Source of the DNA: Parcubacteria group bacterium GW2011_GWA2_40_23
GTDB taxonomy: Bacteria; Patescibacteriota; Patescibacteriia; UBA11705; JABHMO01
Assembly (NCBI GenBank): GCA_000996245.1
Contig: LBYP01000005.1
Span: 10,305 to 74,304 of the forward strand
DNA length: 64,000 bases
Direction of reading: 5' to 3'
Part shown: piece by piece, positions 3,882-58,066 of the stretch
Layout of the letters: every line of letters starts with the position of its first letter
Position numbering within the stretch: position 1 is the stretch's first letter
Notes under the pieces: generated by a model
What the model was told of the DNA's origin: nothing
Database searches by the model: none
What the model saw: the letters and a program-made list of their open reading frames with translations, nothing else
Position numbers and translations under genes: made by a program

Positions 3882-6647
3882 CTAATAAATCTTTTCCATC
3901 TCCTGCCAATTCTTCCCTGCCTCAGTTTCAACTTTAATCGGCACTTCTAATTTATGAATTTTTTCCATTTTTTCATCAATAATTTTCGCTACCTGATCCA
4001 CCATATCCATCGGCACTTCAAAGACTAATTCATCGTGAACCTGAAGCATCATTTTTATTTTATTACTGGTGACTGGTGACTGGTTACTGGTGACTAGTTT
4101 ATTGAGTCCCTTAATTATCTTATAGACCTCGATCATCGCAATTTTCATTAAATCAGCTGCTGTACCTTGAATCGGCATGTTAATAGCCATACGTTCGGCG
4201 GACAAGCGCACTTGAGCAACACCGGAATTTATTTCTGGCAAATATCTGCGGCGACCAAATAATGTTTGGACATAACCATTGTCACGCGCTTCTTCTTTTA
4301 TTTTATCTAAATAAATTTTAACGTCTTTGTAAGTTTCAAAATATTTTTCGATAAATTCTCGTGCACGTTCTCGCGAAATCTTTTTGCGCCAAGCCAAACC
4401 ATAGGCACCCATACCATACAAAACTCCAAAGTTGACTTCCTTAGCCGCAGAACGCATTTCCTTATCGACTTTTTCGAGTGGGACTTCAAAAATTTTAGCC
4501 GCTGTTGTGGTATGAATATCTTCGCCACGTTTAAAAACATCCATCATGTTTTTATCTTTAGCGAGACAAGCGATGACGCGCAATTCAACTTGAGAATAGT
4601 CAGCCGAAACCATACGTTGACCACGATCAGCCACAAACGCTTTGCGAATTGCTTTGCCCCAATCTGTCCGAATTGGAATATTCTGCAAATTTGGATTGGA
4701 TGATGACAATCTTCCCGTCGCAGTAATGGTTTGATTGAACTCTGTATGCACTCGACCGGTTTTTGGATTGATCAATTTCGGTAAAGCATCGACATAAGTT
4801 GATTGTAATTTAGAAAGCTCACGATAATCTTCGATGAACGGCACAATTTCATGTTGATCATGCAATTTTTCAAGTTCGACAGCCGCGGTTGAAATGCCAG
4901 TCTTAGTTTTACCTATTCCCTCGCGACTAATATTCAACTTTTCAAATAAAATTTCTTTGAGTTGTAATGGCGAACTAATATTAAATTCTTCACCAGCTAA
5001 TTTATAAATCTTTTTAGTTAAGGCTTTTAATTGTTTGCTTAATTCTTTTGATAAAACACTGAGTTGTTCTTCGTCGATTTTGATTCCCGTGAGTTCCATC
5101 TCAACCAAAACTTCGACAAGCGGCATTTCGATTTCATCAAAAAGTTTTATCAGTTCATTTTCTTTCAATTCGTTTTGCAAAGGTTTTATCAACCGGAAAG
5201 TATAATCAGCATCTTCGCAAGAATAATCTGACACTTTGTTTTTGTCGACAAATGCGAGCGTGGTTTGTCCCTTGCCTTTGCCGATTAAATCAGTAATTTT
5301 AGTCATCTGATAGCCCAGCTCGCGGAAAACCATATCGTCGAGCTTGTGGGCTCGGGTACCAGGATTCAGCAGATATGAAGCGATCATGGTATCGAACCAA
5401 ATACCTTCGACTTCAAGCCCATTGCACTTCAACGCCTTGATATCAAACTTCATATTCTGTCCGGCTTTCTTGACGTTTGGATCGGCAAAGATTGGTTTTA
5501 ATTTTTCGAGGAATTCAGGCTTCGCTTCAACATAATAAGCCACGCCCTCTTCCCAGCAAAAACTAATACCCAGTAATTTTGCGAGAATAACATCGAGCCC
5601 GTCAGTTTCAGTATCAAAAACAAAAAACTCTTGTTGGTTTAATTTTTTCAAAAACTTTTCAAACTCAACTGCTGTTTGAATTAAAGTGTAATTGTGATTT
5701 GATTGTCTTTCGGTTCGTGCTTCAGTTTCAACTTCTGTTTTGCCACCAAGAACCGGCAAACGATTTAATAAACTTTTAAATTCAAGCTCCTGAAAGAGTT
5801 CATAAACATCTTCTTTGTTATAAGATTGCAAAGCGCATTTTTCTAAAGTGAAATCAATCGGCACATCGTGCACGATAGTTGAGAGAACGCGGCTTTGATA
5901 TGCCTGATCTTTATTATCAATAAGCAATTGATACAACCGCTCCGTGACTTTTATGTTTTTATAAACTCCAACTTTAACTTTTTTATACATTTCTTCCATG
6001 GTGCCAAATTCTTTGACTAGTCCGAGCGCTGTTTTTTCGCCCACACCAGGAACTCCCGGTATATTATCTGACGGGTCACCACGCAAACCTTTATAGTCGA
6101 TGAGTTGCTCGGGGCCAATTCCTTCATATTTTTCCTTAACTCCTTTGACATCATAAATAACCGTATCATTCATACCTTTGCGTAAAGTATAAACATGAGT
6201 ATTCTCGTCGACCAACTGAAACGCATCTTTATCTCCCGTCACAATAATAGAAAGAATCTCATCATTATCAACACTTTTTTCATGACACAAAGTTCCAATC
6301 ACATCATCAGCTTCAAAACCAGCTTTTTCAAAAATCGGTACATTCATGGCTTCTAAAACTTGTTTTAAAATTGGAATTTGATCGTACAATTCATCTGGTT
6401 GTTTAACACGTGTGGCTTTGTAGTCGACCGAAAGTTCATGACGGAAAGTTTTTTCTTTTCTATCAAAAGTCACAGCCAAATATTCTGGTTTAAATTCAGT
6501 TAAAGCTTTAAATAAAGTTGTTAGGAATCCGTAAACAGCATGAACCAAGCGGCCATCCTTAGTGGTCATTGGTGGCAGGGCGTGCCAGGCGCGATGGAGT
6601 AAGGCATTGCCGTCGACGATAACAAATTTTTTTCTTGATTTGACCAT
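3882..6647 (-). CDS. polA: DNA polymerase I
   Basis: 921 aa with an N-terminal 5'-3' exonuclease region, pol motif DYSQVELRV and QVHDELVFEV. AT-rich. Confidence 0.95.
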   Translation of the reverse strand: MVKSRKKFVIVDGNALLHRAWHALPPMTTKDGRLVHAVYGFLTTLFKALTEFKPEYLAVTFDRKEKTFRHELSVDYKATRVKQPDELYDQIPILKQVLEAMNVPIFEKAGFEADDVIGTLCHEKSVDNDEILSIIVTGDKDAFQLVDENTHVYTLRKGMNDTVIYDVKGVKEKYEGIGPEQLIDYKGLRGDPSDNIPGVPGVGEKTALGLVKEFGTMEEMYKKVKVGVYKNIKVTERLYQLLIDNKDQAYQSRVLSTIVHDVPIDFTLEKCALQSYNKEDVYELFQELEFKSLLNRLPVLGGKTEVETEARTERQSNHNYTLIQTAVEFEKFLKKLNQQEFFVFDTETDGLDVILAKLLGISFCWEEGVAYYVEAKPEFLEKLKPIFADPNVKKAGQNMKFDIKALKCNGLEVEGIWFDTMIASYLLNPGTRAHKLDDMVFRELGYQMTKITDLIGKGKGQTTLAFVDKNKVSDYSCEDADYTFRLIKPLQNELKENELIKLFDEIEMPLVEVLVEMELTGIKIDEEQLSVLSKELSKQLKALTKKIYKLAGEEFNISSPLQLKEILFEKLNISREGIGKTKTGISTAAVELEKLHDQHEIVPFIEDYRELSKLQSTYVDALPKLINPKTGRVHTEFNQTITATGRLSSSNPNLQNIPIRTDWGKAIRKAFVADRGQRMVSADYSQVELRVIACLAKDKNMMDVFKRGEDIHTTTAAKIFEVPLEKVDKEMRSAAKEVNFGVLYGMGAYGLAWRKKISRERAREFIEKYFETYKDVKIYLDKIKEEARDNGYVQTLFGRRRYLPEINSGVAQVRLSAERMAINMPIQGTAADLMKIAMIEVYKIIKGLNKLVTSNQSPVTSNKIKMMLQVHDELVFEVPMDMVDQVAKIIDEKMEKIHKLEVPIKVETEAGKNWQEMEKIY

Positions 6648-7338: not shown

Positions 7339-7344
7339 CTAGCT

Positions 7345-7925: not shown

Positions 7926-7931
7926 ACGAAA

Positions 7932-13642: not shown

Positions 13643-13662
13643 ATCTCGGGAAAAAACATTCC

Positions 13663-13703: not shown

Positions 13704-13709
13704 TTGTTG

Positions 13710-13892: not shown

Positions 13893-14031
13893 GAGAACCT
13901 CCCTTCAGGTGACCAACTAATATATCAAGGTCTTACTTTTTTGTCAATGACACCAGTTGTTTTTCTGCTAAATTTAACTGAAAAAACAACTCTTTTGCAG
14001 GGCTCAATGTCCTCAGCCCCCACAAAAGAGC

Positions 14032-14060
14032 TTGACAGGATCCTCCAGAGATGCTAGATT
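14032..14060 (+). promoter_or_regulatory. sigma70-like promoter (TTGACA-17-TAGATT)
   Basis: Seen in sequence upstream of 14095. Confidence 0.5.
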
Positions 14061-14094
14061 GTAGTGTCCGAGGTAGTATAACCTGGAGGTTCGA

Positions 14095-14436: not shown

Positions 14437-14495
14437 TTCTTCACCGAGTAACGCGAACATGACAACGGGAGCACTCCTCGAAGTGCTCCCGATTT

Positions 14496-16199: not shown

Positions 16200-16370
16200 A
16201 TTGCTTCACTCTGGGGCTTGCCCAGTAGTGTGGCGAAGCCTCTACTACTGGGCCCCCATCGTCTAGTGGTTAGGACACCAGGTTTTCATCCTGGTAACAG
16301 GGGTCCGATTCCCCTTGGGGGTACCATAAAGTACACGCTATGCGTGACTTTATGGCAAGCCATAATACAA
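16200..16370 (+). repeat. tRNA cassette flanks: leader GGGGCTTGCCC + hairpin overlapping the tRNA 5' end, and trailer hairpin including CCA + GGCAAGCCAT
   Basis: Same leader/trailer family as the 53.7-56.2 kb tRNA cluster. Confidence 0.6.
16252..16326 (+). tRNA. tRNA-Glu (UUC)
   Basis: Cloverleaf folded by hand; anticodon loop TTTTCAT; CCA encoded. Confidence 0.8.
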
Positions 16371-16739
16371 GCCACAAGACAAGCCACAATATTTATCGTG
16401 GCACACCAAAAGTGAACGAGTAATCTCGTTCTTTTTTGTTAGTATTCGTTTTTTTCCTTGACAAAAAAACAAGCAGCCTTATCAGCTGCCTATCAATTAT
16501 TACAAATATTTACAAAAAGACTACAACCTCTTAATTTTCTCTCTTATATTCGCTATTTGCTTGGTTTCCTTACTTTTCTTTATATTATTTTTGAGATCAG
16601 TTGTGCGTTTTTTAAGTTGATTTAGATCGTTGATTATTCGTTCCATTTCCTCTACAATAGGCTTGAGAGTGTTTTGTTTTGCCATACAGAATAAATTTAT
16701 ATTAATTCATCTATCTAATAATATCACTTTAAATCATCA

Positions 16740-18824: not shown

Positions 18825-18882
18825 ATACTGTTAAGCTGTAAAGCTAACAAGTTCATTGAAAACATTAAAAAGGAAACCTACC

Positions 18883-20031: not shown

Positions 20032-20050
20032 CTAAAAGGAGATCACAAAA

Positions 20051-21071: not shown

Positions 21072-21142
21072 TAGACTTAACGTCCCTTTTTAAAAAATGT
21101 CCCACAAGGCTTGAGCCCGGTGGGATTTTACGAATAGAATTG

Positions 21143-21490
21143 CTATCGTTTGTCAGCGATGCAATGCCTTAAAAGGTAGAAATGCAACCACTTACCGGCA
21201 TGGATGTCCGAAAAGGCTACTGGAGGATTAGGTATACCCTCCACAGGAACTTCGAACAGAAGGTCGACATCGCCATCGTCGCTACGGGACTCGACGTGAA
21301 TCAAGTCACCCGTGTCGATTTCGTACCAAGTCGCAGTATAGCTGGAACGAGCATTCGCCGACAGGACCACTGGCGTGGTGAGCTCTAAGCGTAGAACTTC
21401 TTCCAATCTCAGCAACCGACCGGTACAAGTAACAACATACTCGAAATCAGAAAGACCGACGTAGCTTTGCAACAGGATGAGCTGCTTCAT
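21143..21490 (-). CDS. hypothetical protein (115 aa), GC-rich
   Basis: GAGGG RBS; third gene of a three-gene minus-strand cluster. Confidence 0.4.
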   Translation of the reverse strand: MKQLILLQSYVGLSDFEYVVTCTGRLLRLEEVLRLELTTPVVLSANARSSYTATWYEIDTGDLIHVESRSDDGDVDLLFEVPVEGIPNPPVAFSDIHAGKWLHFYLLRHCIADKR

Positions 21491-21515
21491 GCTTCTGCCC
21501 TCGATCTTTCTGCGT

Positions 21516-21740
21516 CTATTTCTGGATCCAGTGATTGGCCAAGAGAACCAGACACTCGTCGCAATGCAGCGGAACCGGGCAGGTATGCGCTTCCGGGAGA
21601 CGCATCTCTTCGCCGCAGGTCACGCAGTAGTAGAACATGTCAGACCCCGCATAGAGCTTGGCGTTGTCGACGCGTTCTTTACCCGCGTTCTTCTCTTGTC
21701 GCAGACGCAATTGCTCCAGGGCCAGTTCTCGCTCGTCCAT
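21516..21740 (-). CDS. small zinc-ribbon protein (74 aa), GC-rich
   Basis: AAGGAGG RBS; CVTC...CPVPLHCDEC cysteine cluster. Confidence 0.45.
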   Translation of the reverse strand: MDERELALEQLRLRQEKNAGKERVDNAKLYAGSDMFYYCVTCGEEMRLPEAHTCPVPLHCDECLVLLANHWIQK

Positions 21741-21765
21741 GAGGAACCTCCTTGTGGGTTAACGA

Positions 21766-21990
21766 CTAGTTACCGCAACCCTCGGTCAGCGGATCGAAAG
21801 ACTCGGCCACGACGCGCTCTTCGGCCCACCTCATCTCCTGCCGACCGATGCGCAGAGCTTCTTCTGCGGACATGAACTTGTGCGCCTGGCTTTTATCCGA
21901 AGCCCAGCCCCAGATGCCATTGAAGTTGCACAGCCACCGATTTCGCAGAGCCTCAGAATCCACGGCAACGTACAGGGGCAACTGTGACAT
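21766..21990 (-). CDS. hypothetical protein (74 aa), GC-rich
   Basis: Start trimmed to ATG 21990, which has a GGAGGTG RBS (ORF track 21766..22047). Confidence 0.4.
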   Translation of the reverse strand: MSQLPLYVAVDSEALRNRWLCNFNGIWGWASDKSQAHKFMSAEEALRIGRQEMRWAEERVVAESFDPLTEGCGN

Positions 21991-22135
21991 GGCGCACCTC
22001 CGCTGGAAGGGTTCATCGATCCGCACAACAACAAAGATTAACATCACAAAGAGGCTATGTCAACAGCAATTATCCGACAAGTTATTTTTTCTCCTACTTT
22101 TCGAATTAGCAGGTATTTATAATATAATCTTTAAC

Positions 22136-30425: not shown

Positions 30426-30490
30426 ACTTCAGCAGAACATGATGAACTCAATTCTCAAGTATCAGTTAAAACTTGTCGAGACAGAAAAGG

Positions 30491-30700
30491 TCAATACGGA
30501 CCATGACGACTTGCACCTGAGCCCCGAGGTTTTATCCTATAGACCTTTCTTCCCCTTTCAATCCGGTAACAGCCCGTACATTCCGTTTTTATGCAGGACA
30601 CCGTTCCTCTTGGAGAATTGGGACTCTCCGTCTCGGGGAGACCGCTCAAGTCCAACTCAGTCCCACACAAGTCACACGTCAATGCGGATTTTTCCTCTGC
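30491..30700 (-). CDS. small zinc-ribbon protein (70 aa), GC-rich
   Basis: Internal Met of ORF 30491..30895 with GGAGAAG RBS; CDLCG ... CIKTECTGC. Confidence 0.4.
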   Translation of the reverse strand, partial: AEEKSALTCDLCGTELDLSGLPETESPNSPRGTVSCIKTECTGCYRIERGRKVYRIKPRGSGASRHGPY

Positions 30701-30726
30701 CATTTTTTCTTCTCCATCTGGCTTAA

Positions 30727-31044
30727 CTAGCGTAGTGTCCTGTCTCCAACTACCGACAGTTTGGTCGGATCCCAAGCACGCAGACCCAGCAGAATGACGA
30801 AAGCAAGCACCGCCAAGAACGCGAAGACTGGCGAGGTGCTCAGCATATCGCTCGGAGTAATCCCGACCGAGGCCTCCATGACGAACACCAGCCAAGTGAT
30901 GGCCGTAAGAAGAAAAGCACTCATCGCGACGCTGTGGTGGCTATCCGGCCAGTTTCCGCGAGTTGCCAGCCACGCCGGCAAGAACCCCAGCCCCAGGAAT
31001 AGCAAGCTTCCCAATAGAAAGATCAACCCAAAGATAAAGTCCAT
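30727..31044 (-). CDS. small membrane protein (3 TM, 105 aa), GC-rich
   Basis: GGGAGGAG RBS; three hydrophobic segments. Confidence 0.5.
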   Translation of the reverse strand: MDFIFGLIFLLGSLLFLGLGFLPAWLATRGNWPDSHHSVAMSAFLLTAITWLVFVMEASVGITPSDMLSTSPVFAFLAVLAFVILLGLRAWDPTKLSVVGDRTLR

Positions 31045-31188
31045 TTTCTCCTCCCTAGCAGTTAGATCTCAACCAATTACCCTTATTGTACACAAAACGT
31101 GAGGAAAATCAATCTCCATTAAAACCGCCGCCCCTGCCTGCCGGCAGGCAGGCTCTATGAGGAGCGCGGCAGTATGAACAGATGAACC

Positions 31189-31464
31189 TTACGGAATCAC
31201 GACCTCGTTCGGTCCCCGACCCCACTTGCCAGTGAAGCGAGCCGAACGCTGTGTGATCTCGGGCAGCGCCGTGCTACCTATCGGCCGCTCCCAGACACAG
31301 ACGACTCCACGTCGATCGGTAAGAATCCACTTAATGACGTTAGCGGCGCGCTCGTCGACAGCCATCGTCTTCACATACCATTCGGATTCCGAGTCGGAAC
31401 CGACGAACTTTGGCTTCGTGACAAGCGAGTTGCCAACTTCGTTGTCGTGCATTGCAATTTTCAT
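31189..31464 (-). CDS. hypothetical protein (91 aa), GC-rich
   Basis: GAGGGG RBS. Confidence 0.45.
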   Translation of the reverse strand: MKIAMHDNEVGNSLVTKPKFVGSDSESEWYVKTMAVDERAANVIKWILTDRRGVVCVWERPIGSTALPEITQRSARFTGKWGRGPNEVVIP

Positions 31465-31497
31465 CTAGAACCCCTCAGGTAACGAAGTTTCTCTAAG

Positions 31498-31752
31498 CTA
31501 GACAGCGCGCAGGATCAGAAGAACGACGGCAATAACTGCCGTAACCAGGAAAAGTGACAAGTAACCTCGGTTGCGCTTCCTCCGTGCCAGTTCGGTGCGG
31601 CCAGGTCTGCCTTCTCCCTCACAGACGTGGCAGACACCGTCCTTGTGGTGAATCTTATACCAGACTCGACCACAATGGATGCACTGCTCCTGTTCTTCGT
31701 CGCCCATGGCCGTAAACGTTTCCAGAACACGATCACCAAGATCGTCACTCAT
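31498..31752 (-). CDS. zinc-ribbon protein with a C-terminal TM helix (84 aa), GC-rich
   Basis: GGAGG RBS; CIHCG...CHVCEG; C-terminal LSLFLVTAVIAVVLLIL. The architecture resembles membrane anti-sigma-like proteins. Confidence 0.5.
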   Translation of the reverse strand: MSDDLGDRVLETFTAMGDEEQEQCIHCGRVWYKIHHKDGVCHVCEGEGRPGRTELARRKRNRGYLSLFLVTAVIAVVLLILRAV

Positions 31753-31867
31753 GAGTTGCCTCCAGGTTGTTACTTCCTACGAATAACAACTCAGGGTAAC
31801 AAAAAAAGGCAGATTTGTCAATGATTGTGCTATTTTACTGCAAAAAAGGCTAAAATTTGGTACAATA

Positions 31868-35633: not shown

Positions 35634-35975
35634 ATGCGCTTTCTCCTTCGCTCAAAAATTCACAAAGCCACAGTCACCGAAGCAAACCTCAACTATATCG
35701 GCAGCATCACCATCGATAAAACTTTGATCGAAAAAGTCGGCTTTTGGCCTGGCGAAAAAGTTTTAGTTGTCAGCAACACAACTGGCGCCAGACTAGAAAC
35801 CTACATTATTGTCGGCAAGAAAAACTCCGGAATCATTTGCATGAATGGTGCAGCTGCTCATCTGATAAAAAAAGGCGAAGAAATAATTATTATGGGTTTT
35901 GAATTGACTAATAAAAAAATAGAACCGAAAATGATTTTAGTTGATAAAAAAAATAAGTTTGTAAAATCTTTATAA
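35634..35975 (+). CDS. panD: aspartate 1-decarboxylase
   Basis: LRSKIHKATVTEANLNYIGSITID ... ICMNGAAAH, hallmark PanD. Confidence 0.85.
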   Translation: MRFLLRSKIHKATVTEANLNYIGSITIDKTLIEKVGFWPGEKVLVVSNTTGARLETYIIVGKKNSGIICMNGAAAHLIKKGEEIIIMGFELTNKKIEPKMILVDKKNKFVKSL

Positions 35976-36018
35976 ATAATAAATCCCCGCTCACGTTGCG
36001 CAAGCAGGGACTTTTCTA

Positions 36019-36537
36019 TCAGTACGTTCTTTTTTCACGATTCTCCGTGGCGATTCGTCCCGTCCCCTTCGGATCGAAGACGTGAACCAGGAGCATGGCC
36101 CACTCGAGGCAAAAGGCCTTGAAGCCAATCCAGTACCGCATTGGGACCAGCTTGACTTTTCGGTGATGCGCCAGACGGAAGGTCACCCAGAACCGCAAGG
36201 CATGTTGCCAGTGCGTCACCACCGTGAAGTGCTGGTCATGATCGCGCTCCACAAGACGTAGAACACCCGAGATATTCTCGTAGGTGTCACGTGACAGTTC
36301 CTCGCACAAGATCTTGTTGGCATGAACGCCTTGTTCATTCAACCAAGAACGCATGAGCAAGCTAGACGCGATAGTCTGGGTATCAGCCGGCAGGTAAATC
36401 CCGCCCATGACAACGATGGCATCGTACTTTCCGCTCTGCCACAAGGACAAAGCACGCATGAGCCGCTTCTCCGTCATCATGCCGTCCAAGCGATTCTTCG
36501 CTACAACCTCGCAACTGGGAACGAGCAAATAACGCAT
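36019..36537 (-). CDS. DUF218 (YdcF/SanA-like) protein, GC-rich
   Basis: AIVVMGG ... TSL ... VTHWQHALR pattern. Confidence 0.5.
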   Translation of the reverse strand: MRYLLVPSCEVVAKNRLDGMMTEKRLMRALSLWQSGKYDAIVVMGGIYLPADTQTIASSLLMRSWLNEQGVHANKILCEELSRDTYENISGVLRLVERDHDQHFTVVTHWQHALRFWVTFRLAHHRKVKLVPMRYWIGFKAFCLEWAMLLVHVFDPKGTGRIATENREKRTY

Positions 36538-36606
36538 CGTCTAACCTCACAAAATTGTTTTTCAATGACCTTATAAGATACCAAAACAAAGACTTTTTGT
36601 CAATCC

Positions 36607-38117: not shown

Positions 38118-38185
38118 AATAATTTTAAAAAAATCACCGTGCACAGTTTTGAGCTAGCACGGTTTTTTTTCGTGTTGTTGGCGTA

Positions 38186-38458
38186 TTAGCCAACGAGACG
38201 GTAGAGATAATCACGAGCTACAGGTATCCCTGGCTTCGAACTTGCCTGGAATTCGTCGTCGGTTTGCAGACGTTCGAGAACTTTTCCGGGCGAAATGAGC
38301 TTGCACAATTCCGAGTACAGATACGGTTGCACGAAATTAGGTGTACGCACCTGCACAGTCTCAGTGAGAGTCCCTAGATCGTACCAAAGTCCTGGCAAGT
38401 ACCCCAGAACTTCGAGAATGAGAGCACTCACAGCCGATCGAACTTCTAACTCGTTCAT
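38186..38458 (-). CDS. hypothetical protein (about 90 aa), GC-rich
   Basis: Internal ATG of ORF 38186..38470. Confidence 0.35.
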   Translation of the reverse strand: MNELEVRSAVSALILEVLGYLPGLWYDLGTLTETVQVRTPNFVQPYLYSELCKLISPGKVLERLQTDDEFQASSKPGIPVARDYLYRLVG

Positions 38459-38571
38459 TCTTATTCTCAATGTGGTTGATCATTTCGATCTGCGGACTCT
38501 CGACATTATCATTATAACAATAATTTGTAAACAATTCTTTCTTCATTATTTGTTATTCAAAATTCTATATT

Positions 38572-38612
38572 TTTGAAAAAAATTCTCCCCCCAGCTGCAT
38601 GCAGCTGGGGGG
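38572..38612 (-). terminator. rho-independent terminator (perfect 13-bp palindrome)
   Basis: ccccccagctgcatgcagctgggggg with a T-run on the minus strand. Confidence 0.65.
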
Positions 38613-38620
38613 AGTCGAAC

Positions 38621-39505
38621 CTAGTTCAGCACGTCGAGCTTGCCGTGCTTGATCCAGTTCTTGAACGTGGTCGTGGGGAAGCGGAGCCGAAGCTTCTCGA
38701 GCTCGGCCTCGCTGGTGCCGACGGACTCGGGGGTCTGCCCGCTCAACTTGATGATCGCGAGCACCTTGTCCACTTGCACTGACGAGTCAGGGTAGTCCCA
38801 GAACTTGTCACGCAGCTTGCTCATGAGGGCGTCGAGCGAACGCTGGTAGGCCAGGTCAGCCAGATCCTGTGCGTGCTCCTTGGTGATGGACCCGTGCGAG
38901 TAGATCTCGTCGTCAGCCTTGTAGCCATTCGCATGCCAGAGCTCGTTTTTGAAACGCTCTACCAGCTTGCTCGGCGTGAAGTACCCGCTCTCGTTGAATT
39001 CGACCGGGTACTGGTACAGCTTTAGGAGCGTATACTCAGCCATCCGCGCATGGTTGACACCAAGCGTCACGTCGATGTCGTGCTGGGTCTTGCCCAGCTC
39101 TTCAAGGGTGGTGTTGTGCTTCTTGATCTCGCTCAAGAAGCTGTTGAACCTCTCCGAGAGCGACTCGGAGTACCCATCGTCGTACAGATCCTCGCACCGG
39201 TAGTTGAGCAGGGACAGGAGATTCCCTTCGAACCCTTTGTGCTTGCTCTTTTTCACGAGGAGCTGGAGCTCTTCCTTCGTCGTGTTGAGCTGCTGGTACG
39301 TCATTAACCCTGCGTCCAGGTAACCCATGAGGTGCTGAACGTCCTGCTCGAGGTCGAACGGAGGCGTCTCCGCCTGCTTCCAGCCGCGGATCTCCTCAGC
39401 CCAGCTGTCGATCTGTGCGGCACGCCGCGTCTCTTCCGAGATCTCGCTCATCTTGCTGCAGTACACCATGTTGAGCATGAGGACAATGAACAGAACGCGA
39501 CGCAT
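38621..39505 (-). CDS. secreted hypothetical protein (signal peptide), GC-rich
   Basis: MRRVLFIVLMLNMVYCS signal; start chosen at the second ATG. Confidence 0.5.
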   Translation of the reverse strand: MRRVLFIVLMLNMVYCSKMSEISEETRRAAQIDSWAEEIRGWKQAETPPFDLEQDVQHLMGYLDAGLMTYQQLNTTKEELQLLVKKSKHKGFEGNLLSLLNYRCEDLYDDGYSESLSERFNSFLSEIKKHNTTLEELGKTQHDIDVTLGVNHARMAEYTLLKLYQYPVEFNESGYFTPSKLVERFKNELWHANGYKADDEIYSHGSITKEHAQDLADLAYQRSLDALMSKLRDKFWDYPDSSVQVDKVLAIIKLSGQTPESVGTSEAELEKLRLRFPTTTFKNWIKHGKLDVLN

Positions 39506-39551
39506 GAAGCACCCCAAAACAGTTGATCTGTCCGCCCTTTGCGAACCATAA

Positions 39552-40476: not shown

Positions 40477-41706
40477 TTAAAGTACGCGCAAAATAAGAAC
40501 TTTTAAATAACCTCCTTCTGTAAAGCTGGGAAGTTCGAGATGATCTGGTGCAAAAGTTAAAACTTCGAGTATTTGAATTGTTTTGCCAGCATTAATGCTG
40601 GCATTAACCAAAATATTTTTAAAATCATCAAGTGACAAATGAGCGGAACAAGAGCAAGTCATCAAAATGGAATTTGAAGGCATGATTCTCATGGCCACTT
40701 CGTTGATGCTTTTGTAGCCGATCATGCCTTCTTTAATTTTGTCTCGGTCTTTGATAAAAGCTGGTGGATCAAGAACAATAACATCAAAAGTATTTGGTTC
40801 GATAGTGCGTAAATATTTTTTTACATCTTCGCAAATTGAGGTGTATTTTGTTTTTGGAAAATCATTAAGGATAAAGTTCTTTTCAGCTAGTTCAATTGCT
40901 TTGGGAGAGACATCAACACTTGTTACATGTTTAGCACCGGCTGCAAGAGCGTAGACAGAAAAACCACCAGTATAAGAAAAACAATTTAAAACATTTTTAT
41001 CTTTAACGTATTTGGTCAGAGCTTGGCGTTTGTCGCGTTGATCTAAAAAGAAACCAGTTTTTTGGCCCTCAACGACATCAACATCAAAGAGCAATCCATT
41101 TTCTTTGACTTTAATTGTGGCAGGAACTTTGCCAAAAAGTAAGCGCGAGCGGTTGTCCGTTTCTTCTTCAGTTAAAGAACGTTTATAGGTTTTATCGTAA
41201 ATACCTTTTGGTTTAACAATATCAATTAAGGCATTGATAATTTGTTCTTGCCAAGCTTCGATACCACGATTATGAAATTGAACAACTAAATAATCAGCAT
41301 ATTTATCCACGATAAGGCCTGGTAAAAAATCATTTTCACTATTTACGATACGGTAACAATTAGTTTTCTTTTGGTCGATGGCTTGGAGTCGAACGGAAAG
41401 TGCGAGTTCAATTCGTTTCACAAAAAAATCATCATTAACCTCTTCGTTTTCTTCATAACCCCAAATACGGACTGCAAGTTGCGAATATGAATTAAAAAAA
41501 CCTTGAGCTAAAAATTCATCATCGCTTGAATAGAGGCTGACCGGTTCGCCGTAACTTAAACCTTCAGGTAAATCAATAATAGCGCCAGAGTAAACCCACG
41601 GGTGTCCGCGTAAGATCGGACCAATTTTTTTTGTATAAACTGTTAACTTGATCATAGTTTTAATTTTCGGGGTTATTATCTCATTTTTGGTGATTTTGTC
41701 AATCAT
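40477..41706 (-). CDS. 23S rRNA m5C methyltransferase RlmI-like (PUA + MTase)
   Basis: NCFSYTGGFSVYALAAGAKHVTSVDVS and DVIVLDPP motifs. Confidence 0.65.
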   Translation of the reverse strand: MIDKITKNEIITPKIKTMIKLTVYTKKIGPILRGHPWVYSGAIIDLPEGLSYGEPVSLYSSDDEFLAQGFFNSYSQLAVRIWGYEENEEVNDDFFVKRIELALSVRLQAIDQKKTNCYRIVNSENDFLPGLIVDKYADYLVVQFHNRGIEAWQEQIINALIDIVKPKGIYDKTYKRSLTEEETDNRSRLLFGKVPATIKVKENGLLFDVDVVEGQKTGFFLDQRDKRQALTKYVKDKNVLNCFSYTGGFSVYALAAGAKHVTSVDVSPKAIELAEKNFILNDFPKTKYTSICEDVKKYLRTIEPNTFDVIVLDPPAFIKDRDKIKEGMIGYKSINEVAMRIMPSNSILMTCSCSAHLSLDDFKNILVNASINAGKTIQILEVLTFAPDHLELPSFTEGGYLKVLILRVL

Positions 41707-41708: not shown

Positions 41709-41862
41709 CTTAAGCGTCATTGCGAGACCGTGAAACAGGTCGAAGTAATCCCCGATATCTCAACTATTTTGTATTGCTATCATAGATATATTAATAAGTT
41801 AACGATCATTAAGATTTCGGGGATTGCTTCGGGCTGCCCATAGCGCCCTCGCAATGACCTTT
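41709..41862. repeat. imperfect ~50-bp inverted repeat pair flanking a 55-bp AT-rich core
   Basis: Left arm gtcattgcgag...cgaagtaatccccga; right arm tcggggattgcttcg...ctcgcaatgac; sits at the junction into a GC-rich island. Confidence 0.4.
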
Positions 41863-41871
41863 GGATTTAGG

Positions 41872-41911
41872 GAAAAAAACACCCCCGCACCACAGATGAC
41901 TGGGTGCGGGG
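41872..41911 (-). terminator. rho-independent terminator
   Basis: ccccgcacc...ggtgcgggg with a T-run on the minus strand. Confidence 0.6.
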
Positions 41912-41952
41912 TAAACCCAACTCATTGTCGAACGAGCGGGGCGTTATGGCTA

Positions 41953-42108
41953 TCACCAGCGGGAACTGAACTCGTTGGTGTCGTCGTAGCCGAAGTCCGG
42001 GGAGAGATCCTTGAACAAAAGGTGTAAGCCGATGGCCAGACCGATCAGTGGGATGCACAGAAGAACAGTACAGATGCCGAGGACGCAGTCGATTTTCTGT
42101 CTCAGCAT
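41953..42108 (-). CDS. small single-TM protein (51 aa), GC-rich
   Basis: Not in the ORF track (<60 aa); GGAAGAGAGGTG RBS; sequence MLRQKIDCVLGICTVLLCIPLIGLAIGLHLLF. Confidence 0.35.
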   Translation of the reverse strand: MLRQKIDCVLGICTVLLCIPLIGLAIGLHLLFKDLSPDFGYDDTNEFSSRW

Positions 42109-42599
42109 GAACACCTCTCTTCCTGTTTTTCGACCTCACGGGGATGTCGAATCGAGTAGAGGTAGAGGCCGAAAGCCAGGATGTCGGCGACGAACATGAT
42201 CCGAATGAAGTAGATGATCAGGAAGTCGAAGGCTTTGATCCAGGGGGACGAGTCTTCGAACACGAGGAAGGGGAGGATCTGCATGTCGATGGTTTTTACC
42301 ACGAAACAGAGACCGTAGCAGAGACTTGCTCCGAGAAAGGAGATTGTAACGCGAGTTGTCAGCTGCTTACCTTTACGGATCTCATCTCGCAGGTCGTCGG
42401 AAAACACCCAGAAGGAGAAGACCGCAACCATCGCCATCCAGAAAGTGGACGTGATGGATCCTTGATCTTCGGGAAAGACGCCAGGTTCGGTGTTCCAGAT
42501 GAAGACGCCGAGGAAGAGGATGATCGTGACGATTACGTGGGGAATCCAGAAGAGCAAGTCGAACACGAGCTTGAACCGCACGGGCGTGGGCTGTGCCAT
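42102..42599 (-). CDS. multi-TM membrane protein (165 aa), GC-rich
   Basis: Start MAQPTPVRF with GGAGGAAA RBS; 4-5 hydrophobic helices. Confidence 0.5.
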   Translation of the reverse strand: MAQPTPVRFKLVFDLLFWIPHVIVTIILFLGVFIWNTEPGVFPEDQGSITSTFWMAMVAVFSFWVFSDDLRDEIRKGKQLTTRVTISFLGASLCYGLCFVVKTIDMQILPFLVFEDSSPWIKAFDFLIIYFIRIMFVADILAFGLYLYSIRHPREVEKQEERCSC

Positions 42600-42631
42600 G
42601 GTTTCCTCCAATCCGAGTTTGTTGTTATTTC

Positions 42632-42877
42632 CTAGGCTGCACGGCGCGGCGGTGTGTGGTCATCCCCGTCTGGAAGTTCTTGCAGACGTTTTTTCAGTCT
42701 GTTCTCGGGCAGGTGGTGGTACATGAGTCCACAATCTTGGCAGTAGTTCTGGGTGGGGCCAAGTTCTGTCGGACGTTTTCCGCCGTAGATCGGTGCGCCG
42801 ACCGGAGTGCGTGTGATTTCTCTCACGATCGGGCCACCACAGACAACACACTTTGCATCGGTCACTTCGGCTGCCAT
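42632..42877 (-). CDS. small zinc-ribbon protein (81 aa), GC-rich
   Basis: MAAEVTDAKCVVCGG ... CQDCG; N-terminal pattern like the 70-aa protein at 30491..30700. Confidence 0.45.
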   Translation of the reverse strand: MAAEVTDAKCVVCGGPIVREITRTPVGAPIYGGKRPTELGPTQNYCQDCGLMYHHLPENRLKKRLQELPDGDDHTPPRRAA

Positions 42878-42958
42878 TGTTTTGCCTCAACGCAGTTACA
42901 TAGTTGATTAGAGATTAACATTTGGCGTGGTTTTGTCAATTCCATCCGATTTGCGATA

Positions 42959-43423
42959 ATGCACAGATTGACAACCACTATGGCTCAGGTAGAATGGGAG
43001 TATAATTTAATTATTTTCATTTTTATGCTTACAAGTGAAGTGACAAATATTGAGTTGGCACGTGAAAACTTTAAAATTTGGAATGAGTCTTTATTGTCAA
43101 AAGACGCTCAAAAAGTTGCTGAGCTTTATACCGTCGATAATACTTTTTTACCAACAATGTCCCCAGAATTCAAAAGAGGACAAGCATCAGCCGAAGGATA
43201 TTTTGTTCATTTTTTAGAGAAAAATCCAGTTGGTGAAATCGTTGAAGATGAATGTCAGGTTTTAGCACCAGATTGTTATTTACATTCAGGCTTATATAAT
43301 TTCACTGTTGGGCCAGAAGACAAACGGGAGGTTGTGGAAGCGCGATTCTCATATGTTTGGAAAAAAAATGAAGCCGGTAATTGGAAAATTCTTCATCATC
43401 ATTCATCAGTTAAACCGAGGTAA
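42959..43423 (+). CDS. NTF2-fold (SgcJ/EcaC, CaMKII-AD-like) protein
   Basis: ARENFKIWNESLLSKDAQKVAELYTVDNTF...; real start possibly 43025. Confidence 0.45.
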   Translation: MHRLTTTMAQVEWEYNLIIFIFMLTSEVTNIELARENFKIWNESLLSKDAQKVAELYTVDNTFLPTMSPEFKRGQASAEGYFVHFLEKNPVGEIVEDECQVLAPDCYLHSGLYNFTVGPEDKREVVEARFSYVWKKNEAGNWKILHHHSSVKPR

Positions 43424-43471: not shown

Positions 43472-44065
43472 TTATAAATTATTTTGCCTTAGCTGTTCTT
43501 TTAGCTTTTCGAGATTTTCAAATTTGTAAGATTTGATTCCAAGACTATTGGCAACCTCCACGTTTTTTTCCGAATCATCAAAATACAAACATTCTTCTGG
43601 TTTCAGGTCATTTTCTTCGAGGATTAGCTTGTAAGCTCTTTCGTCCGGCTTCACAAAACCAGTTTGCCAGGAATAATATCCTTTTTCAGGTAAGGTTTTT
43701 AAGAAAGAGAATGTTTCTTCGTAAAAATGTGTACGTTCTCGAAGATTATTAGACAGAATAAAAATTTTAAGGCCTTGTTTCTTCATGTTCTCGGCCAGCT
43801 CAAGCATTTCTGGAATATCGGTTTCGGTTTTAAACCAGTAATCATAAAATTCTTGTTTGGATAAGTTGATCTTCCAGTCAAAAAAGTATGGTTGCCAGTA
43901 TGAATAGAGGTCATTGGCATTGGGCAAACGAACTTGCGCCATAATCCCTTTGAGTGCTGGTAAAAACTTGTCAGAAGGAATTTTAAAGTCTTCAGCAAAG
44001 CGATCACTCAGCATTCTGCTTTGGATAAAGACGCCGTTTAAGTCAAAAATTATGGCTTTGATCAT
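43472..44065 (-). CDS. HAD-family hydrolase
   Basis: IIFDLNGV (DxN motif I). Confidence 0.6.
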   Translation of the reverse strand: MIKAIIFDLNGVFIQSRMLSDRFAEDFKIPSDKFLPALKGIMAQVRLPNANDLYSYWQPYFFDWKINLSKQEFYDYWFKTETDIPEMLELAENMKKQGLKIFILSNNLRERTHFYEETFSFLKTLPEKGYYSWQTGFVKPDERAYKLILEENDLKPEECLYFDDSEKNVEVANSLGIKSYKFENLEKLKEQLRQNNL

Positions 44066-53670: not shown

Positions 53671-53746
53671 TGGAGCGGGTAAGGGGAGTCGAACCCCTAT
53701 CTTCAGCTTGGAAAGCTGTAATAATACCGCTATACTATACCCGCCC
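53671..53746 (-). tRNA. tRNA-Gly (UCC)
   Basis: Hand-folded; anticodon loop TTTCCAA; CCA encoded. Confidence 0.8.
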
Positions 53747-53915
53747 TGTAGTACATGCTCCGCATGACTACAGGGCAAGCCCTTTATCAAGCGAAACTTT
53801 AGTACGTTTCATCGCATGACTACAGGGCAAGCCCTTTATCAAGCGAAGCTTTAGTACATTTTTCCGCGTGATTGCAGGACCAAGCCCAACGATCCGCGAA
53901 GCTGTAATTCAAGTC
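53747..53915 (-). repeat. three tandem copies of the tRNA leader element (GGGCTTGCCC + hairpin with GCGAAGC-type apex)
   Basis: Successive copies are progressively more degenerate. Confidence 0.6.
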
Positions 53916-54981: not shown

Positions 54982-55058
54982 TGGTGGGTCCGCTGGGATT
55001 TGAACCCAGGACGCCCAGCTTAAAAGGCTGGCGCTCTAACCAACTGAGCTACGAACCC
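54982..55058 (-). tRNA. tRNA-Lys (UUU)
   Basis: Anticodon loop CTTTTAA; GGGTTCGTAGCTCAGTTGG. Confidence 0.85.
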
Positions 55059-55546
55059 TAAAGTACATGCTTCGCATGACTTTAGGGCAAGCCCTAGAAT
55101 CAAACGAAGTTGTTATTGGTTGTTCTTCCTAAAGTATGATCTTAACATTAATCTAATTGCTCTTTTACCGTCCGTTGTTTTGAAATAAGCCTCTCTTCTT
55201 AGGGCATCATCACGACTTAGATGTGCCTCGTAATAAATAACATTCCAAGGGCCTCGATTTTTTGTTGATGGGACAAGGCCTGCATTGTGCTTTAATGATC
55301 TGTGATAAACATCATCTGGAGTAAAGCCAGCATAAAGGTTTTTAGTTTTTTGACCTTCTAAAACATACGTATAATACATATGTTTTAAGAATAATACCAG
55401 CTATTGCAAAGAACAAATCTAGGGGGGGGTATCACTGGGCGGTTCACCCTGAAGTATAAATTTCATTTAACCTCATGGCTAGCCATGAAGTTACGTGATA
55501 ATCATGTCTGGTTTACCATAAAGTCATGTGATTAGCATGTACTTTA

Positions 55547-55623
55547 TGGTCGGGGTGGTGGGACTCGAACCCACGGCCTCTTGGTCCCAAACCAAGCACT
55601 CTAGCCAACTGAGCCACACCCCG
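55547..55623 (-). tRNA. tRNA-Pro (UGG)
   Basis: Anticodon loop TTTGGGA. Confidence 0.85.
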
Positions 55624-55724
55624 AAGTACAGGCTTCGCCTGACTTCGGGGTAAACCCCGCATCAAGCAAAGCTAGATTTTACAATGAATGGCTTGCCACA
55701 AACTGACACGGAGTGTCTAATTTG

Positions 55725-55800
55725 TGGTGCCGAGCCCCAGAATTGAACTGGGGACGCAAGGATTTTCAGTCCTTCGCTCTACCACTGAGCTAGCTCGGCC
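55725..55800 (-). tRNA. tRNA-Phe (GAA)
   Basis: Anticodon loop CTGAAAA. Confidence 0.85.
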
Positions 55801-55958
55801 CGGTAGTACATGCTTCGCATGACTACCGGGCAAGCCCTGTAATAAAGCGAAGTTTAGTACGTTTTTTCGCATGACTGCAGTGTAACCTCAGCAATCAAGC
55901 GAAGTAACAGTATTATGATGGATGGCTTGCCATGAAGTCACACGTAGTATGTACTTCA

Positions 55959-56036
55959 TGGTGGGCGCGGGGGGAATCGAACCTCCGACCTCAGCATTAT
56001 CAGTGCTGCGCTCTAACCAACTGAGCTACGCGCCCC
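55959..56036 (-). tRNA. tRNA-Ile (GAU)
   Basis: Anticodon loop CTGATAA. Confidence 0.85.
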
Positions 56037-56136
56037 GAAGTACAAGCTTCGCTTGACTTCGGGGCAAGCCCTTCAGCAAGGAAGCAGTTATCAATAAATG
56101 GCTTGCCATAAAGTCATGCGATTAGCATGTACTTTA

Positions 56137-56213
56137 TGGTGGGTGGCATAGGATTCGAACCTACGACCCCTTCGGTGTAAACGAAGTGCTCTAACCAGCT
56201 GAGCTAGCCACCC
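56137..56213 (-). tRNA. tRNA-Val (UAC)
   Basis: Anticodon loop TTTACAC. Confidence 0.85.
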
Positions 56214-56594
56214 AGAAGTACAGGCTTTGCCTGACTTCTGGGTAAACCCATAGTCAAACAAAGTTTTTGTACATGGTTCGTCTGACTTCTGGCTTGCCCT
56301 GTGGCGCAATGCCACGGGGGTAAACCCATAATCAAGCGTAGAGTAATAAACAAAACTTAGCTTAGCTAACTAAGCCATCGTGCGCTCAGTATAGCAGGAA
56401 TCTATAGCTATTTCAAGTTATTTTACTTTTAAATAACAGCAAAAGTATAGCAAAAAAAAAGAGACTAATCAATAGTCCTTTTTTTGTTAACTTCAGAATA
56501 GTGGTACGAATCATTTGTCTCCTGCATAGAGAATAAAATACAAGAGCAGGATCGACCTAAGACGATACAGATAAACTGTTCGTCATAGCCCCTT

Positions 56595-58066
56595 AGAAAG
56601 GAGTTGTTTCCATCCACAGCTTCCGCTACGGATGCCTTGTTACGACTTAGCCCCTATCATCGGTCCTACCTTCTGCCGTCCTACAACGACATTCGGGCAT
56701 TACCGACTCTCTTGACTTGACGGGCGGTGTGTACAAGACTCGAGAACGTATTCACCGTGACGTGCTGATCCACGGTTACTAGCGATTCCAGCTTCATGAG
56801 GTCGAGTTTCAGACCTCAATCCGAACTGAGACCAATTTTGGTGGGATTTGCTCCATCTTACGATTTGGCGTCCCTTTGTATTGGCCATTGTAGCATGTGT
56901 GTTGCCCAAGGTGTAAGAGCCATGCTGATTTGACGTCATCCCCACCTTCCTCCTTGTTATACAAGGCAGTTTTCTAATAAAGTATAAATTAGAATGAGGG
57001 TTGCGCTCGTTATCGGACTTAACCGTACACCTCACGGCACGAGCTGACGGCAACCATGCAGCACCTGTCTAGCACCCTCGTAGGCGGCCCTAGTTTCTTA
57101 GGGCTTGCAGCTAGATTTCAAACCTTGGTAAGGTTTTTCGCTTATCGTCGAATTAAACCACGTGCTCCACCGCTTGTGCGAGTCCCCGTCAATTCCTTTG
57201 AGTTTTAATCTTGCGATCGTACTCCCCAGGCGGGATATTTAACGCGTTAGCTTTTTGTGACGACACTGAGAGGGTCGATACTCCCAATGTCTAATATCCA
57301 TAGTTTACGGCGTGGACTACGCGGGTATCTAATCCGCTTCGCTCCCCACGCTTTCGTGCCTTAGTGTCAGTATTGTCCTAGTAAGCTGCCTTCGCATTTG
57401 GTGTTCCTGCCGATATTAACGGATTTAACCCCTACACCGGCAATTCCGCTTACCTCTTCCAAACTCAAGTCTAACAGTATCAGTGGCGATTCCCCGGTTG
57501 AGCCGAAGGATTTAACCACTGACTTAATAGACCACCTACGCACGCTTTACGCCCAATAAATCCGGGTAACGCTTGGGGCACTCGTATTACCGCTGCTGCT
57601 GGCACGAGTTTAGCAGCCCCTTATTCTTCTGGTACAGTCATTAGTTCTTCCCAGAAAAAAGATTTTTACACCCCGAAGGGTTTCATCAACCACGCGGCGT
57701 CGCTCCTTCACACTTTCGTGCATTGAGGAAAATTCTCGACTGCAGCCTCCCGTAGGAGTCTGGGCAGTGTCTCAGTCCCAGTGAGGCGGGTCGTGCTCTC
57801 ACACCCGCTACCCGTCGTAGCCTTGGTAAGCTTTTACCTTACCAACTAGCTGATAGGCCATAGGCCACTCTCTGACCGATAAATCTTTACTGCACCGACT
57901 CATGCCAGTGCAGACCATCGTGTATTAGCTCAGATTTCTCCGAGTTGTTCACGAGTCAGAGGTATGTTACCAATGTGTTACTCACCCGTTTGCCACTCCT
58001 ATTCTATCCGAAGAAGGAATAGGCGTTCGACTTGCATGCCTTAGACACTGGTGATAGCAAATCTAC
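56595..58066 (-). rRNA. 16S ribosomal RNA
   Basis: Reverse-complement contains GTGCCAGCAGCCGCGGTAATAC and AAGTCGTAACAAGG...CTCCTTTCT. 3' end carries anti-SD ACUCCUU; 5' region about 25 nt shorter than the E. coli layout; ends approximate. Confidence 0.85.

Follow-up and report, generated by a model that had tools for sequence, protein, structure and literature searches.

A GC-rich three-gene cassette at the rlmI promoter of a narrow Parcubacteria clade, with a putative zinc-ribbon protein and two predicted membrane proteins

Introduction

Phage 'morons', a concept of Hendrix and colleagues, and genomic islets are independent promoter-to-terminator units of deviant GC content that lie between conserved genes. 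Short single-pass peptides such as CydX and KdpF are encoded beside their polytopic partners (CydAB and KdpABC, respectively) and are coupled with them, and a start/stop overlap with an upstream Shine-Dalgarno site is the classic geometry of translational coupling. In Patescibacteria, genomic islands rich in function-less genes have been described (PMC12455944), and one-domain zinc-finger micro-proteins occur in prokaryotes, for example in Haloferax volcanii (PMC6562870). Here we analyse a GC-rich cassette of about 1.24 kb in a stretch of 64,000 nucleotides (nt) from Parcubacteria group bacterium GW2011_GWA2_40_23 (contig LBYP01000005.1, positions 10,305 to 74,304), which we call the window. 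The cassette lies beside an rlmI-like methyltransferase gene and carries three minus-strand open reading frames (ORFs), named Zn81, TM165 and pep51, which it shares with two related lineages, L006 and L015.

Organisation of the cassette

An initial annotation had proposed a GC-rich operon of three minus-strand genes at this locus, and the ORF list of the window confirmed all three at the coordinates claimed. The features are as follows (window positions).

42912..42939, minus strand: P1, promoter-like element of sigma-70-like type (TTGACA at 42934-42939, 16-nt spacer, TAATCT at 42912-42917)
42885..42888, minus strand: Shine-Dalgarno site of Zn81, GAGG inside TTGAGGCAA, kept in L006 and L015
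42632..42877, minus strand: Zn81, soluble protein of 81 amino acids (aa), putative Zn-ribbon, CxxC-32-CxxC
42605..42609, minus strand: Shine-Dalgarno site of TM165, GGAGG; GGAGGAAA is invariant across the three lineages and the spacer around it is variable
42102..42599, minus strand: TM165, membrane protein of 165 aa counted from the ATG, four helices predicted
42114..42119, minus strand: Shine-Dalgarno site of pep51, GAGAGG, within the 3' end of TM165
41953..42108, minus strand: pep51, predicted single-pass membrane peptide of 51 aa
41915..41942, minus strand: 3' hairpin 1; in L015 the T-run comes directly after it
41873..41911, minus strand: 3' hairpin 2 with T-run, putative terminator, with a related copy at 2794-2827
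41712..41861, minus strand: long imperfect palindrome with GTCATTGCGAG arms, filling the gap that separates the terminator from the rlmI promoter (DNA fold z = -5.8)

The predicted promoter P1 is kept in all three lineages although the intergenic DNA around it has diverged. On the minus strand TTGAGGCAA is followed by the Zn81 ATG at 42877, and the gene stops at 42632. Between this stop and the TM165 ATG (42599) lies GGAGGAAACC; the mechanical ORF of TM165 begins upstream, with a TTG at 42611. The sequence GAGAGGTGTTC precedes the ATGCTGA (42102-42108) in which the stop of TM165 (TGA, 42102-42104) and the start of pep51 (ATG at 42108) share 7 nt. Downstream of the pep51 stop at 41953 are two hairpins and then GTGTTTTTTT. 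This 3' segment folds with -37.8 kcal/mol (z = -5.1; 0 of 200 shuffles equally stable), and a consensus terminator scanner missed the hairpins because their loop is longer than the scanner limit. The GC-rich operon (~52% GC), the ribosome-binding site of the 51-aa ORF (GAGAGG) and the strong terminator of the initial annotation are thereby confirmed.

Hairpin 2 (GGGTTTACCCCGCACCCAGTCATCTGTGGTGCGGGG, 41883-41916, minus strand) has an 88% similar copy at 2794-2827 (plus strand), inside another GC-rich island. As it is missing in L015, it looks like a repeated hairpin element gained in the ancestor of the window and L006. The palindrome (~150 nt) has inner arms GAAGCAATCCCCGA; L006 and L015 carry different palindromic filler at this place.

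The operon is 100% identical in five independent assemblies, which excludes an assembly chimera. Zn81 is identical to 'hypothetical protein UT32_C0011G0024' of Parcubacteria group bacterium GW2011_GWC2_39_14 (GCA_000993485.1, contig LBWI01000011), and the operon DNA is also present in JGI and Logan assemblies.

Conservation and selection in three lineages

A word-indexed search of 5.8 billion proteins detected only the window proteins and their orthologues in L006 and L015. In the second genome (L006-L012, e.g. ENA ERZ27250635 k141_1221811) Zn81 is 76% and TM165 48% identical to the window proteins, and both genes are adjacent and lie beside the same rlmI-like methyltransferase gene. When 1.84 billion representatives were searched exhaustively by profile, one further lineage from groundwater emerged (P0004, L015/L016), whose gene neighbourhood is the same. 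All three ORFs are intact in L006 and L015, including a pep51 of 51 codons, all three Shine-Dalgarno sites and the ATGxTGA overlap (ATGCTGA or ATGTTGA). The initial annotation had named conservation of the 51-aa ORF in homologous loci as a check; the ORF is present in 3/3 loci with start/stop overlap and Shine-Dalgarno site, so that none of them lacks it.

The ratios of nonsynonymous to synonymous substitution (dN/dS; Nei-Gojobori, all pairs) listed here come from three orthologous loci only, with synonymous sites near saturation (proportion of synonymous differences 0.5-0.7), and are rough values.

Zn81: 0.13-0.18
TM165: 0.42-0.56
pep51: 0.18-0.29
rlmI: 0.02-0.09
radical-SAM (S-adenosylmethionine) gene: 0.09-0.10
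ychF: 0.04

The dS values of cassette genes (0.85-1.2) and flanking genes (0.74-0.82) are similar and dN is 10-30 times higher in the cassette, which indicates that the three cassette genes are coding and constrained and that their proteins evolve 10-30 times faster than their neighbours. Judged by these ratios, the three genes are real, and purifying selection acts on them in all three lineages, which belong to one narrow Parcubacteria clade.

The TM165 profile found no match in the GTDB species genomes, only the L006-type genome matched in JGI metagenomes, and no relative was detected among IMG/VR viral contigs, INPHARED phages and PLSDB plasmids. As far as these 5.8 billion and 1.84 billion proteins reach, the cassette family is an ORFan confined to three lineages.

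Divergence within the cassette is mosaic. The 3' untranslated region is 97% identical between the window and L006, vs about 70% for the coding DNA. At 42355-42414, which encodes the cytosolic loop of TM165, it is L006 that stands apart (window-L015 72%, window-L006 53%), and at 41995-42054, the pep51 tail, it is the window (L006-L015 85%). This mosaic indicates either lineage-specific bursts of change or recombination.

Annotation of the locus in public records

The gene calls at NCBI, JGI, Logan and ENA carry a plus-strand ORF instead of TM165 (163 aa; 188 aa in L006):

42144..42635, plus strand: antisense ORF of 163 aa, deposited as KKR07455.1/KKR55059.1, UT32_C0011G0023

If these records were correct, the acidic plus-strand ORF would be the gene and TM165 and pep51 its antisense shadow, a reading that can point to the agreement of gene callers across all four sources and to a frame that is open in both the window and L006. 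The ORF has, however, a dN/dS of 1.07, its differences fall mostly at codon position 1 (the complement of the third position of TM165), it shrinks to only 98 aa in L015, and it has neither a Shine-Dalgarno site nor promoter context. The minus frame, on the other side, shows a coding GC pattern (GC at third codon positions, GC3, of 0.73), conserved Shine-Dalgarno sites and a homologue from the profile search of 1.84 billion proteins, and GC-rich genes are expected to carry long open antisense frames. We consider it hardly conceivable that the public annotation is right; from its codon changes KKR07455.1 is an antisense artefact of TM165 and no gene. It is also extremely unlikely that a single five-helix protein underlies TM165 and pep51, whether a sequencing error split it or programmed frameshifting joins its parts. 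The 7-nt overlap and the membrane-embedded nature predicted for both products would fit such a protein, but three diverged lineages and many independent assemblies retain the ATGCTGA/ATGTTGA overlap together with the Shine-Dalgarno site 5-6 nt upstream, and no slippery sequence is evident at the junction. The initial annotation was thus right in choosing the minus strand and in adding an unannotated 51-aa ORF, since the antisense ORF has the above dN/dS and pep51 occurs in no protein collection. A collection of 15 billion proteins contains neither pep51 nor TM165 (the latter searched by exact sequence), nor the 70-aa ORF at 30.5 kb discussed below.

The strand error was likely caused by a gene finder trained on the AT-rich majority of the genome, which misread GC-rich atypical genes. 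GeneMarkS-2 was built for this problem of atypical genes in gene finding (PMC6028130). A second wrong-strand case was seen in the L006 orthologue (L006 15675-16148) of the island gene at 7422-7925, which is also called antisense. Such calls could bias orphan counts and protein-family surveys of candidate-phyla bacteria. With its comparative validation and its apparent translational coupling, the small membrane peptide pep51 is suited to proteomics.

Protein features and predicted structures

Zn81 has two Cys pairs (C10xxC13 and C46xxC49), of which all four Cys are invariant in the three lineages, and no membrane segment by hydropathy. Its AlphaFold2 model, calculated from a two-sequence alignment (mean predicted local distance difference test score, pLDDT, 67), predicts a three-stranded sheet (strands 2-9, 16-25 and 37-46) with two CxxC knuckles, followed by a short helix and a disordered tail at the C-terminus. 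No Pfam Zn-ribbon family scored above its cut-off for Zn81. Weak hints, all below significance, led to the Zn domain of MqsA (Foldseek E 0.75; Pfam E 0.16) and to small uncharacterised phage proteins (E 0.1).

For TM165 the initial annotation had given a minus-strand gene of 165 aa with four to five transmembrane segments. The gene holds (dN/dS 0.42-0.56), and the prediction is four helices, not five: hydropathy gives three strongly and one moderately hydrophobic segment, and the AlphaFold2 model is a four-helix bundle (pLDDT 71, predicted template modelling score 0.64) with Foldseek matches to four-helix membrane bundles of a generic kind. On its cytosolic side, TM165 is most conserved in the loop LRDEI(R/C)KGK(Q/R)LT, common to the window and L015; the conservation of the C-terminal ...SC is at least partly due to the overlapping pep51 start. 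Pep51 has a single membrane segment (residues 8-26, hydropathy), a basic N-terminus and an acidic tail.

The insertion site

A fourth relative, L021 (CAZMEQ010000008.1), shows groEL, a terminator hairpin, a TTGACA promoter and rlmI without a cassette between them. Its RlmI is 88% and its GroEL 91-92% identical to those of the other lineages (overall range 86-92%). The record is titled 'uncultured Gammaproteobacteria bacterium'; the identity of GroEL and RlmI to Parcubacteria and the shared GC-island pattern make a wrong label or wrong binning of the record probable. It is exactly this groEL/rlmI site that the cassette occupies in L006 and L015; in the window the groEL side is rearranged. Two direct-repeat copies bound the cassette in the window:

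42919..42940, minus strand: left 22-nt copy, comprising the -35 box and spacer of the cassette promoter
41682..41703, minus strand: right 22-nt copy, comprising the -35 box and the spacer of P2, the promoter of rlmI

The copies are 82% identical and spaced by 1237 nt, and they hold the only perfect matches to TTGACAAAANCACNNNAAATG in the window. No convincing boundary repeats were found at the other eight islands listed below. In an alignment of P1, P2 and the empty site, the L021 promoter is P1-like on the left and P2-like on the right, as expected from an insertion in the ancestral rlmI promoter that duplicated ~22 nt. The cassette would then have inserted inside this promoter, to be transcribed from the resident -35 box and its own -10 box, and rlmI would have regained a restored promoter. 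GroEL identities suggest that L021 is the outgroup, which favours gain of the cassette. It unites deviant composition, a putative promoter and terminator of its own and presence/absence at a conserved site, the marks of an islet. On this comparison the rlmI promoter is where the ~1.24 kb cassette lies, between copies of a promoter repeat, and in L021 that site is without it. No relative that could point to a donor was found outside the clade in the protein, GTDB, JGI, viral, phage and plasmid searches.

Two further observations concern the neighbourhood. The rlmI ORF of 409 codons is over-extended (41655-41706, minus strand); its first 17 codons, MIDKITKNEIITPKIKT, are translated promoter (TTGACAAAATCACCAAAAATGAGATAAT). 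Translation really starts at the ATG at 41655, so that the protein has 392 aa, the length seen in L006. L006 (13250-16250) and the window (38151-39550) differ in GC-rich island content downstream of the rlmI/radical-SAM pair, which is conserved; gene order is also rearranged, L006 continuing into the 7.4-12 kb region of the window. With content and order differing between such close relatives, the island sites look like turnover hotspots.

GC-rich islands, codon composition and translation signals

The window has a mean GC content of 41% and is a patchwork in which housekeeping genes have ~33-40% and ~10 islands of 0.65-3.5 kb have 50-57%, a count that leaves out the rRNA/tRNA block and the GC-rich right-hand end. 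Nine islands, which make up about a fifth of the window, are listed here:

301-3850: GC-rich island
6751-8000: GC-rich island (island 2)
13601-14550: GC-rich island
18851-20050: GC-rich island
21101-22100: GC-rich island
30451-31800: GC-rich island, the 30.5-kb locus
35951-36600: GC-rich island
38151-39550: GC-rich island
41751-43000: GC-rich island with the cassette

The cassette region has ~52% GC, compared with roughly 36% in its neighbours. Most island products have no family; the exceptions are a major facilitator superfamily (MFS) transporter, a radical-SAM/SPASM protein, a DUF218 protein and a DksA/TraR-type zinc-finger protein. GC3 is bimodal, with 0.24-0.41 in 27 core genes and 0.48-0.86 in 20 island ORFs, which prefer C-ending codons. 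The cassette genes of the window have 0.57-0.76; across all three genomes TM165 and pep51 have 0.69-0.80, Zn81 0.57-0.65 and the adjacent rlmI 0.28-0.33.

In a two-state decay model with core GC3 as equilibrium and a core dS of 0.74-0.80, an ancestral GC3 > 1 would be needed at the split of window and L006 to leave 0.75 today. Polarised third-position changes comprised 33 GC>AT vs 24 AT>GC where about 7:1 was expected (binomial p = 2e-8), a parsimony count that is unreliable at the present saturation. The decay calculation rules out a decaying relic of horizontal transfer as the full explanation of GC content for TM165 and pep51, and the polarised changes weakly contradict it. Either a local process upholds the foreign composition, or a GC-rich reservoir supplies cassette alleles anew.

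Translation signals divide along the same line. Shine-Dalgarno sites of GAGG/GGAGG type precede 15/15 island genes vs about 1/29 core genes. A TATAAT-like box 7-12 nt ahead of the ATG is common in core genes (e.g. 3882..6647, 43472..44065 and 40477..41655, all minus strand), and several of them look leaderless. The 3' end of the 16S rRNA reads ...AACAACTCCTTTCT, with CCUCC changed to ACUCC; in the tail at 56597-56620 (minus strand), GGATGGAAACAACTCCTTTCT, the canonical anti-Shine-Dalgarno CCUCC is weakened in this way. ACUCC fits core genes without Shine-Dalgarno sites and raises the question how the GGAGG sites of the islands are read. In the literature we found no description of the operon, of the islands in the host genome or of this Shine-Dalgarno dichotomy.

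The two genes of island 2 share a 26-nt leader (AGAAACAACnTTGAGGAAA...ATGA; 6801-6826 and 7436-7461) that resembles the Zn81 leader, and may be distant paralogues (E 0.17). Elsewhere in the window, nested-hairpin repeats of ~55 nt (e.g. CCCCGAAGTACAGGCTTCGCCTGACTTCGGGGTAAACCCC) abut the end of almost every tRNA gene:

16322-16376: nested-hairpin repeat
53742-53796: nested-hairpin repeat
55054-55108: nested-hairpin repeat
55617-55671: nested-hairpin repeat
55797-55851: nested-hairpin repeat
56031-56085: nested-hairpin repeat
56209-56292: nested-hairpin repeat

Comparison with the 30.5-kb locus

The initial annotation had aligned Zn81 by eye with a 70-aa protein at 30491..30700 and read the two loci as copies of one functional unit, with Zn81 as a paralogue. 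Both proteins begin M-A-x-E...C10xxC13-G and have a second Cys pair 23-32 residues on (C10xxC13, C37 and C42xxC45 in the 70-aa ORF), and both loci are GC-rich, led by Shine-Dalgarno sites and equipped with small membrane proteins. The matching C10xxC13 and the second Cys pair are thus present, but the resemblance does not rise above chance. BLASTP gave E 0.31 for an aligned stretch outside the Cys motifs, and the profile of the three Zn81 orthologues reached an hhalign probability of 1.3% over 15 columns. The 84-aa Zn protein of the 30.5-kb locus, which joins a Zn motif to a membrane anchor, did not match better (BLASTP E 0.55, hhalign 4%), and TM165 and the 105-aa membrane protein of that locus appear unrelated (hhalign probability 0.2%). 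All-against-all BLASTP of 21 island proteins revealed no pair at E < 0.005. Gene order differs as well, with Zn-4TM-1TM (TM, transmembrane helix) in the cassette vs 3TM-Zn plus a separate Zn/TM-91aa unit at 30.5 kb. The 70-aa ORF (minus strand) has a Shine-Dalgarno site and precedes a terminator; its codon-position GC is atypical (0.46/0.60/0.49) and it is called in no public record. With this non-coding-like pattern (GC2 0.60 > GC3 0.49) it is a weak gene candidate. A repeated functional unit with Zn81 as paralogue of the 70-aa ORF is therefore very unlikely, and neither proposal was borne out.

The island at 30.4-31.8 kb resembles the cassette in its GC-richness, its Shine-Dalgarno sites, its own terminators and its small Cys-rich and membrane proteins of no database family. 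It differs in gene order, in the fusion of a Zn motif to a membrane anchor in one protein, and in being split into two separately terminated transcription units, one of 84 aa + 91 aa and one of 105 aa + 70 aa. By these comparisons the two loci share a class, that of GC-rich Shine-Dalgarno-led islets with small Cys-rich and membrane proteins, and not a detectable homology.

Discussion

On balance we think it probable that the locus is a real, autonomously transcribed promoter-to-terminator cassette of three genes whose products constitute an accessory membrane complex of a four-helix and a single-helix protein, joined by a Zn-ribbon partner in the cytosol. From the conserved overlap of stop and start it follows that the synthesis of TM165 is coupled to that of pep51; the two would be made in fixed proportion and would probably form a small hetero-oligomeric complex in the membrane. 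Zn81 would act on this complex from the cytosol as adaptor or regulator, possibly at the loop LRDEI-KGK-LT. The family is narrowly distributed, polymorphic in its presence and high in dN, which indicates that its role is accessory, such as an envelope function, an interaction with a partner cell or exclusion, and not a housekeeping one.

Several points weigh against this reading. Complex formation is derived from gene arrangement only, the structure models of TM165 and Zn81 are of moderate confidence and built on two-sequence alignments, and the dN/dS values are only approximate. No significant match in Pfam, PHROGs, PADLOC or NCBIfam was obtained for the proteins of the cassette or of the 30.5-kb locus (in PADLOC and PHROGs no match with E below 0.07). 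Sequence searches of the PDB gave no match, Foldseek against PDB and BFVD no fold match (best E 0.1-0.9), and an Rfam search of the locus at E <= 1 hairpin-like noise only. As to its origin, the cassette may have been lost in L021 and not gained by the other three lineages, the two 22-nt copies match imperfectly and may owe their likeness to promoter convergence, and no integrase, transposase or recombinase gene lies within or next to the cassette.

The main functional rival is a toxin/immunity or toxin-antitoxin-like module, in which pep51 would be a membrane-damaging peptide (type I toxin, holin or bacteriocin-like), TM165 its immunity protein and Zn81 an MqsA-like antidote or regulator. The ~50 aa, the one membrane segment and the charged tail of pep51 and its tight coupling to a polytopic partner are compatible with this, as are the top structural and Pfam hints for Zn81, far below significance as they are, the presence/absence polymorphism, the fast, segment-wise, lineage-specific divergence and the accessory moron-like organisation. 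By analogy, pep51 resembles type I toxins or holins in size and topology only. PADLOC and PHROGs returned nothing, however, Zn81 has no helix-turn-helix, an MqsR-like gene is absent nearby, and neither a double-glycine leader nor a processing or export gene was found; purifying selection and stable synteny of all three genes are unspecific to conflict systems. We regard such a module as unlikely. A different alternative concerns descent: diverged alleles could have been acquired repeatedly, and not inherited vertically, from a GC-rich Shine-Dalgarno-using reservoir (plasmid, virus or partner organism) by site-specific integration at the rlmI promoter, with the 22-nt repeat as attachment site. 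The repeat flanks the cassette and coincides with the target promoter, an empty site exists, and GC3 stays at 0.75 where core-like decay is incompatible with it; further, the mosaic similarities conflict with the flanking-gene tree (the window closest to L015 at 42355-42414, L006 closest to L015 at 41995-42054), and the near-identical 3' untranslated region departs from the coding DNA. Against it stand the lack of a recombinase, of boundary repeats at other islands and of any copy in viral contigs, phages, plasmids, GTDB species genomes and JGI metagenomes outside the clade, as well as cassette dS values close to those of the flanking genes, and repeated acquisition seems quite unlikely to us.

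Beyond the single cassette, the operon might belong to a second, actively maintained gene compartment of ~10 islets per 64 kb with GC-rich codons and GGAGG-type sites, a wider reading that we also rate as unlikely. Should a GC3 of ~0.75 be the equilibrium value next to genes at 0.30, a force would have to act locally. This might be an exchange of cassettes with a GC-rich reservoir through attachment sites embedded in promoters, biased gene conversion of considerable strength, or selection that favours a translation regime of its own, perhaps adapted to a partner organism; if true, such a local force would be undescribed for bacterial genomes at comparable scale. Adjacent genes with GC3 of 0.30 vs 0.75 and different initiation signals, persisting over a dS of ~1, offer a tractable system for studying the upkeep of foreign composition in a streamlined genome. 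The two-class genome is the more surprising lead, the cassette itself being of moderate interest.

Comparison with known systems

The N-terminal Zn-ribbon of MqsA (YgiT; PDB 3gn5, 3hi2, 3ga8; PF15731) shares with Zn81 the arrangement CxxC, ~30 residues, CxxC and a predicted three-stranded sheet, and is its top, insignificant Foldseek match in the PDB (TM-score 0.32; Pfam 12.5 bits vs a cut-off of 30). Unlike MqsA, Zn81 has no C-terminal helix-turn-helix, and its neighbours are TM165 and pep51 and not an MqsR partner. We rejected Zn81 as an MqsA/YgiT antitoxin, as neither the PF15731 nor the structure match is significant and both the helix-turn-helix and an adjacent MqsR-type toxin gene are absent. 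Zinc-finger micro-proteins are likewise shorter than 100 aa and essentially a single C4 Zn-ribbon, as is predicted for Zn81; Zn81 has no sequence relationship to them and is the first gene in an operon with two membrane proteins.

Like CydX and KdpF, pep51 has ~50 aa, one predicted membrane segment and a start that overlaps the stop of the preceding polytopic gene, whereas TM165, unlike their partners, matches no known enzyme or transporter family.

The closest likeness in organisation is to morons and genomic islets. The cassette shares with them a promoter and an intrinsic terminator of its own (both predicted here), a sharply deviant composition, a site between two conserved genes, presence in some relatives and absence in one, and small proteins of unassigned function, including membrane proteins. 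It departs from them in lying outside a recognisable prophage and having no mobility gene, in being kept under purifying selection at a dS around 1 with its GC-rich codons undecayed, and in using Shine-Dalgarno sites while the core genes of the host are without them. By this analogy, the cassette works in its organisation like a phage 'moron' or genomic islet, a unit of foreign composition set between conserved genes.

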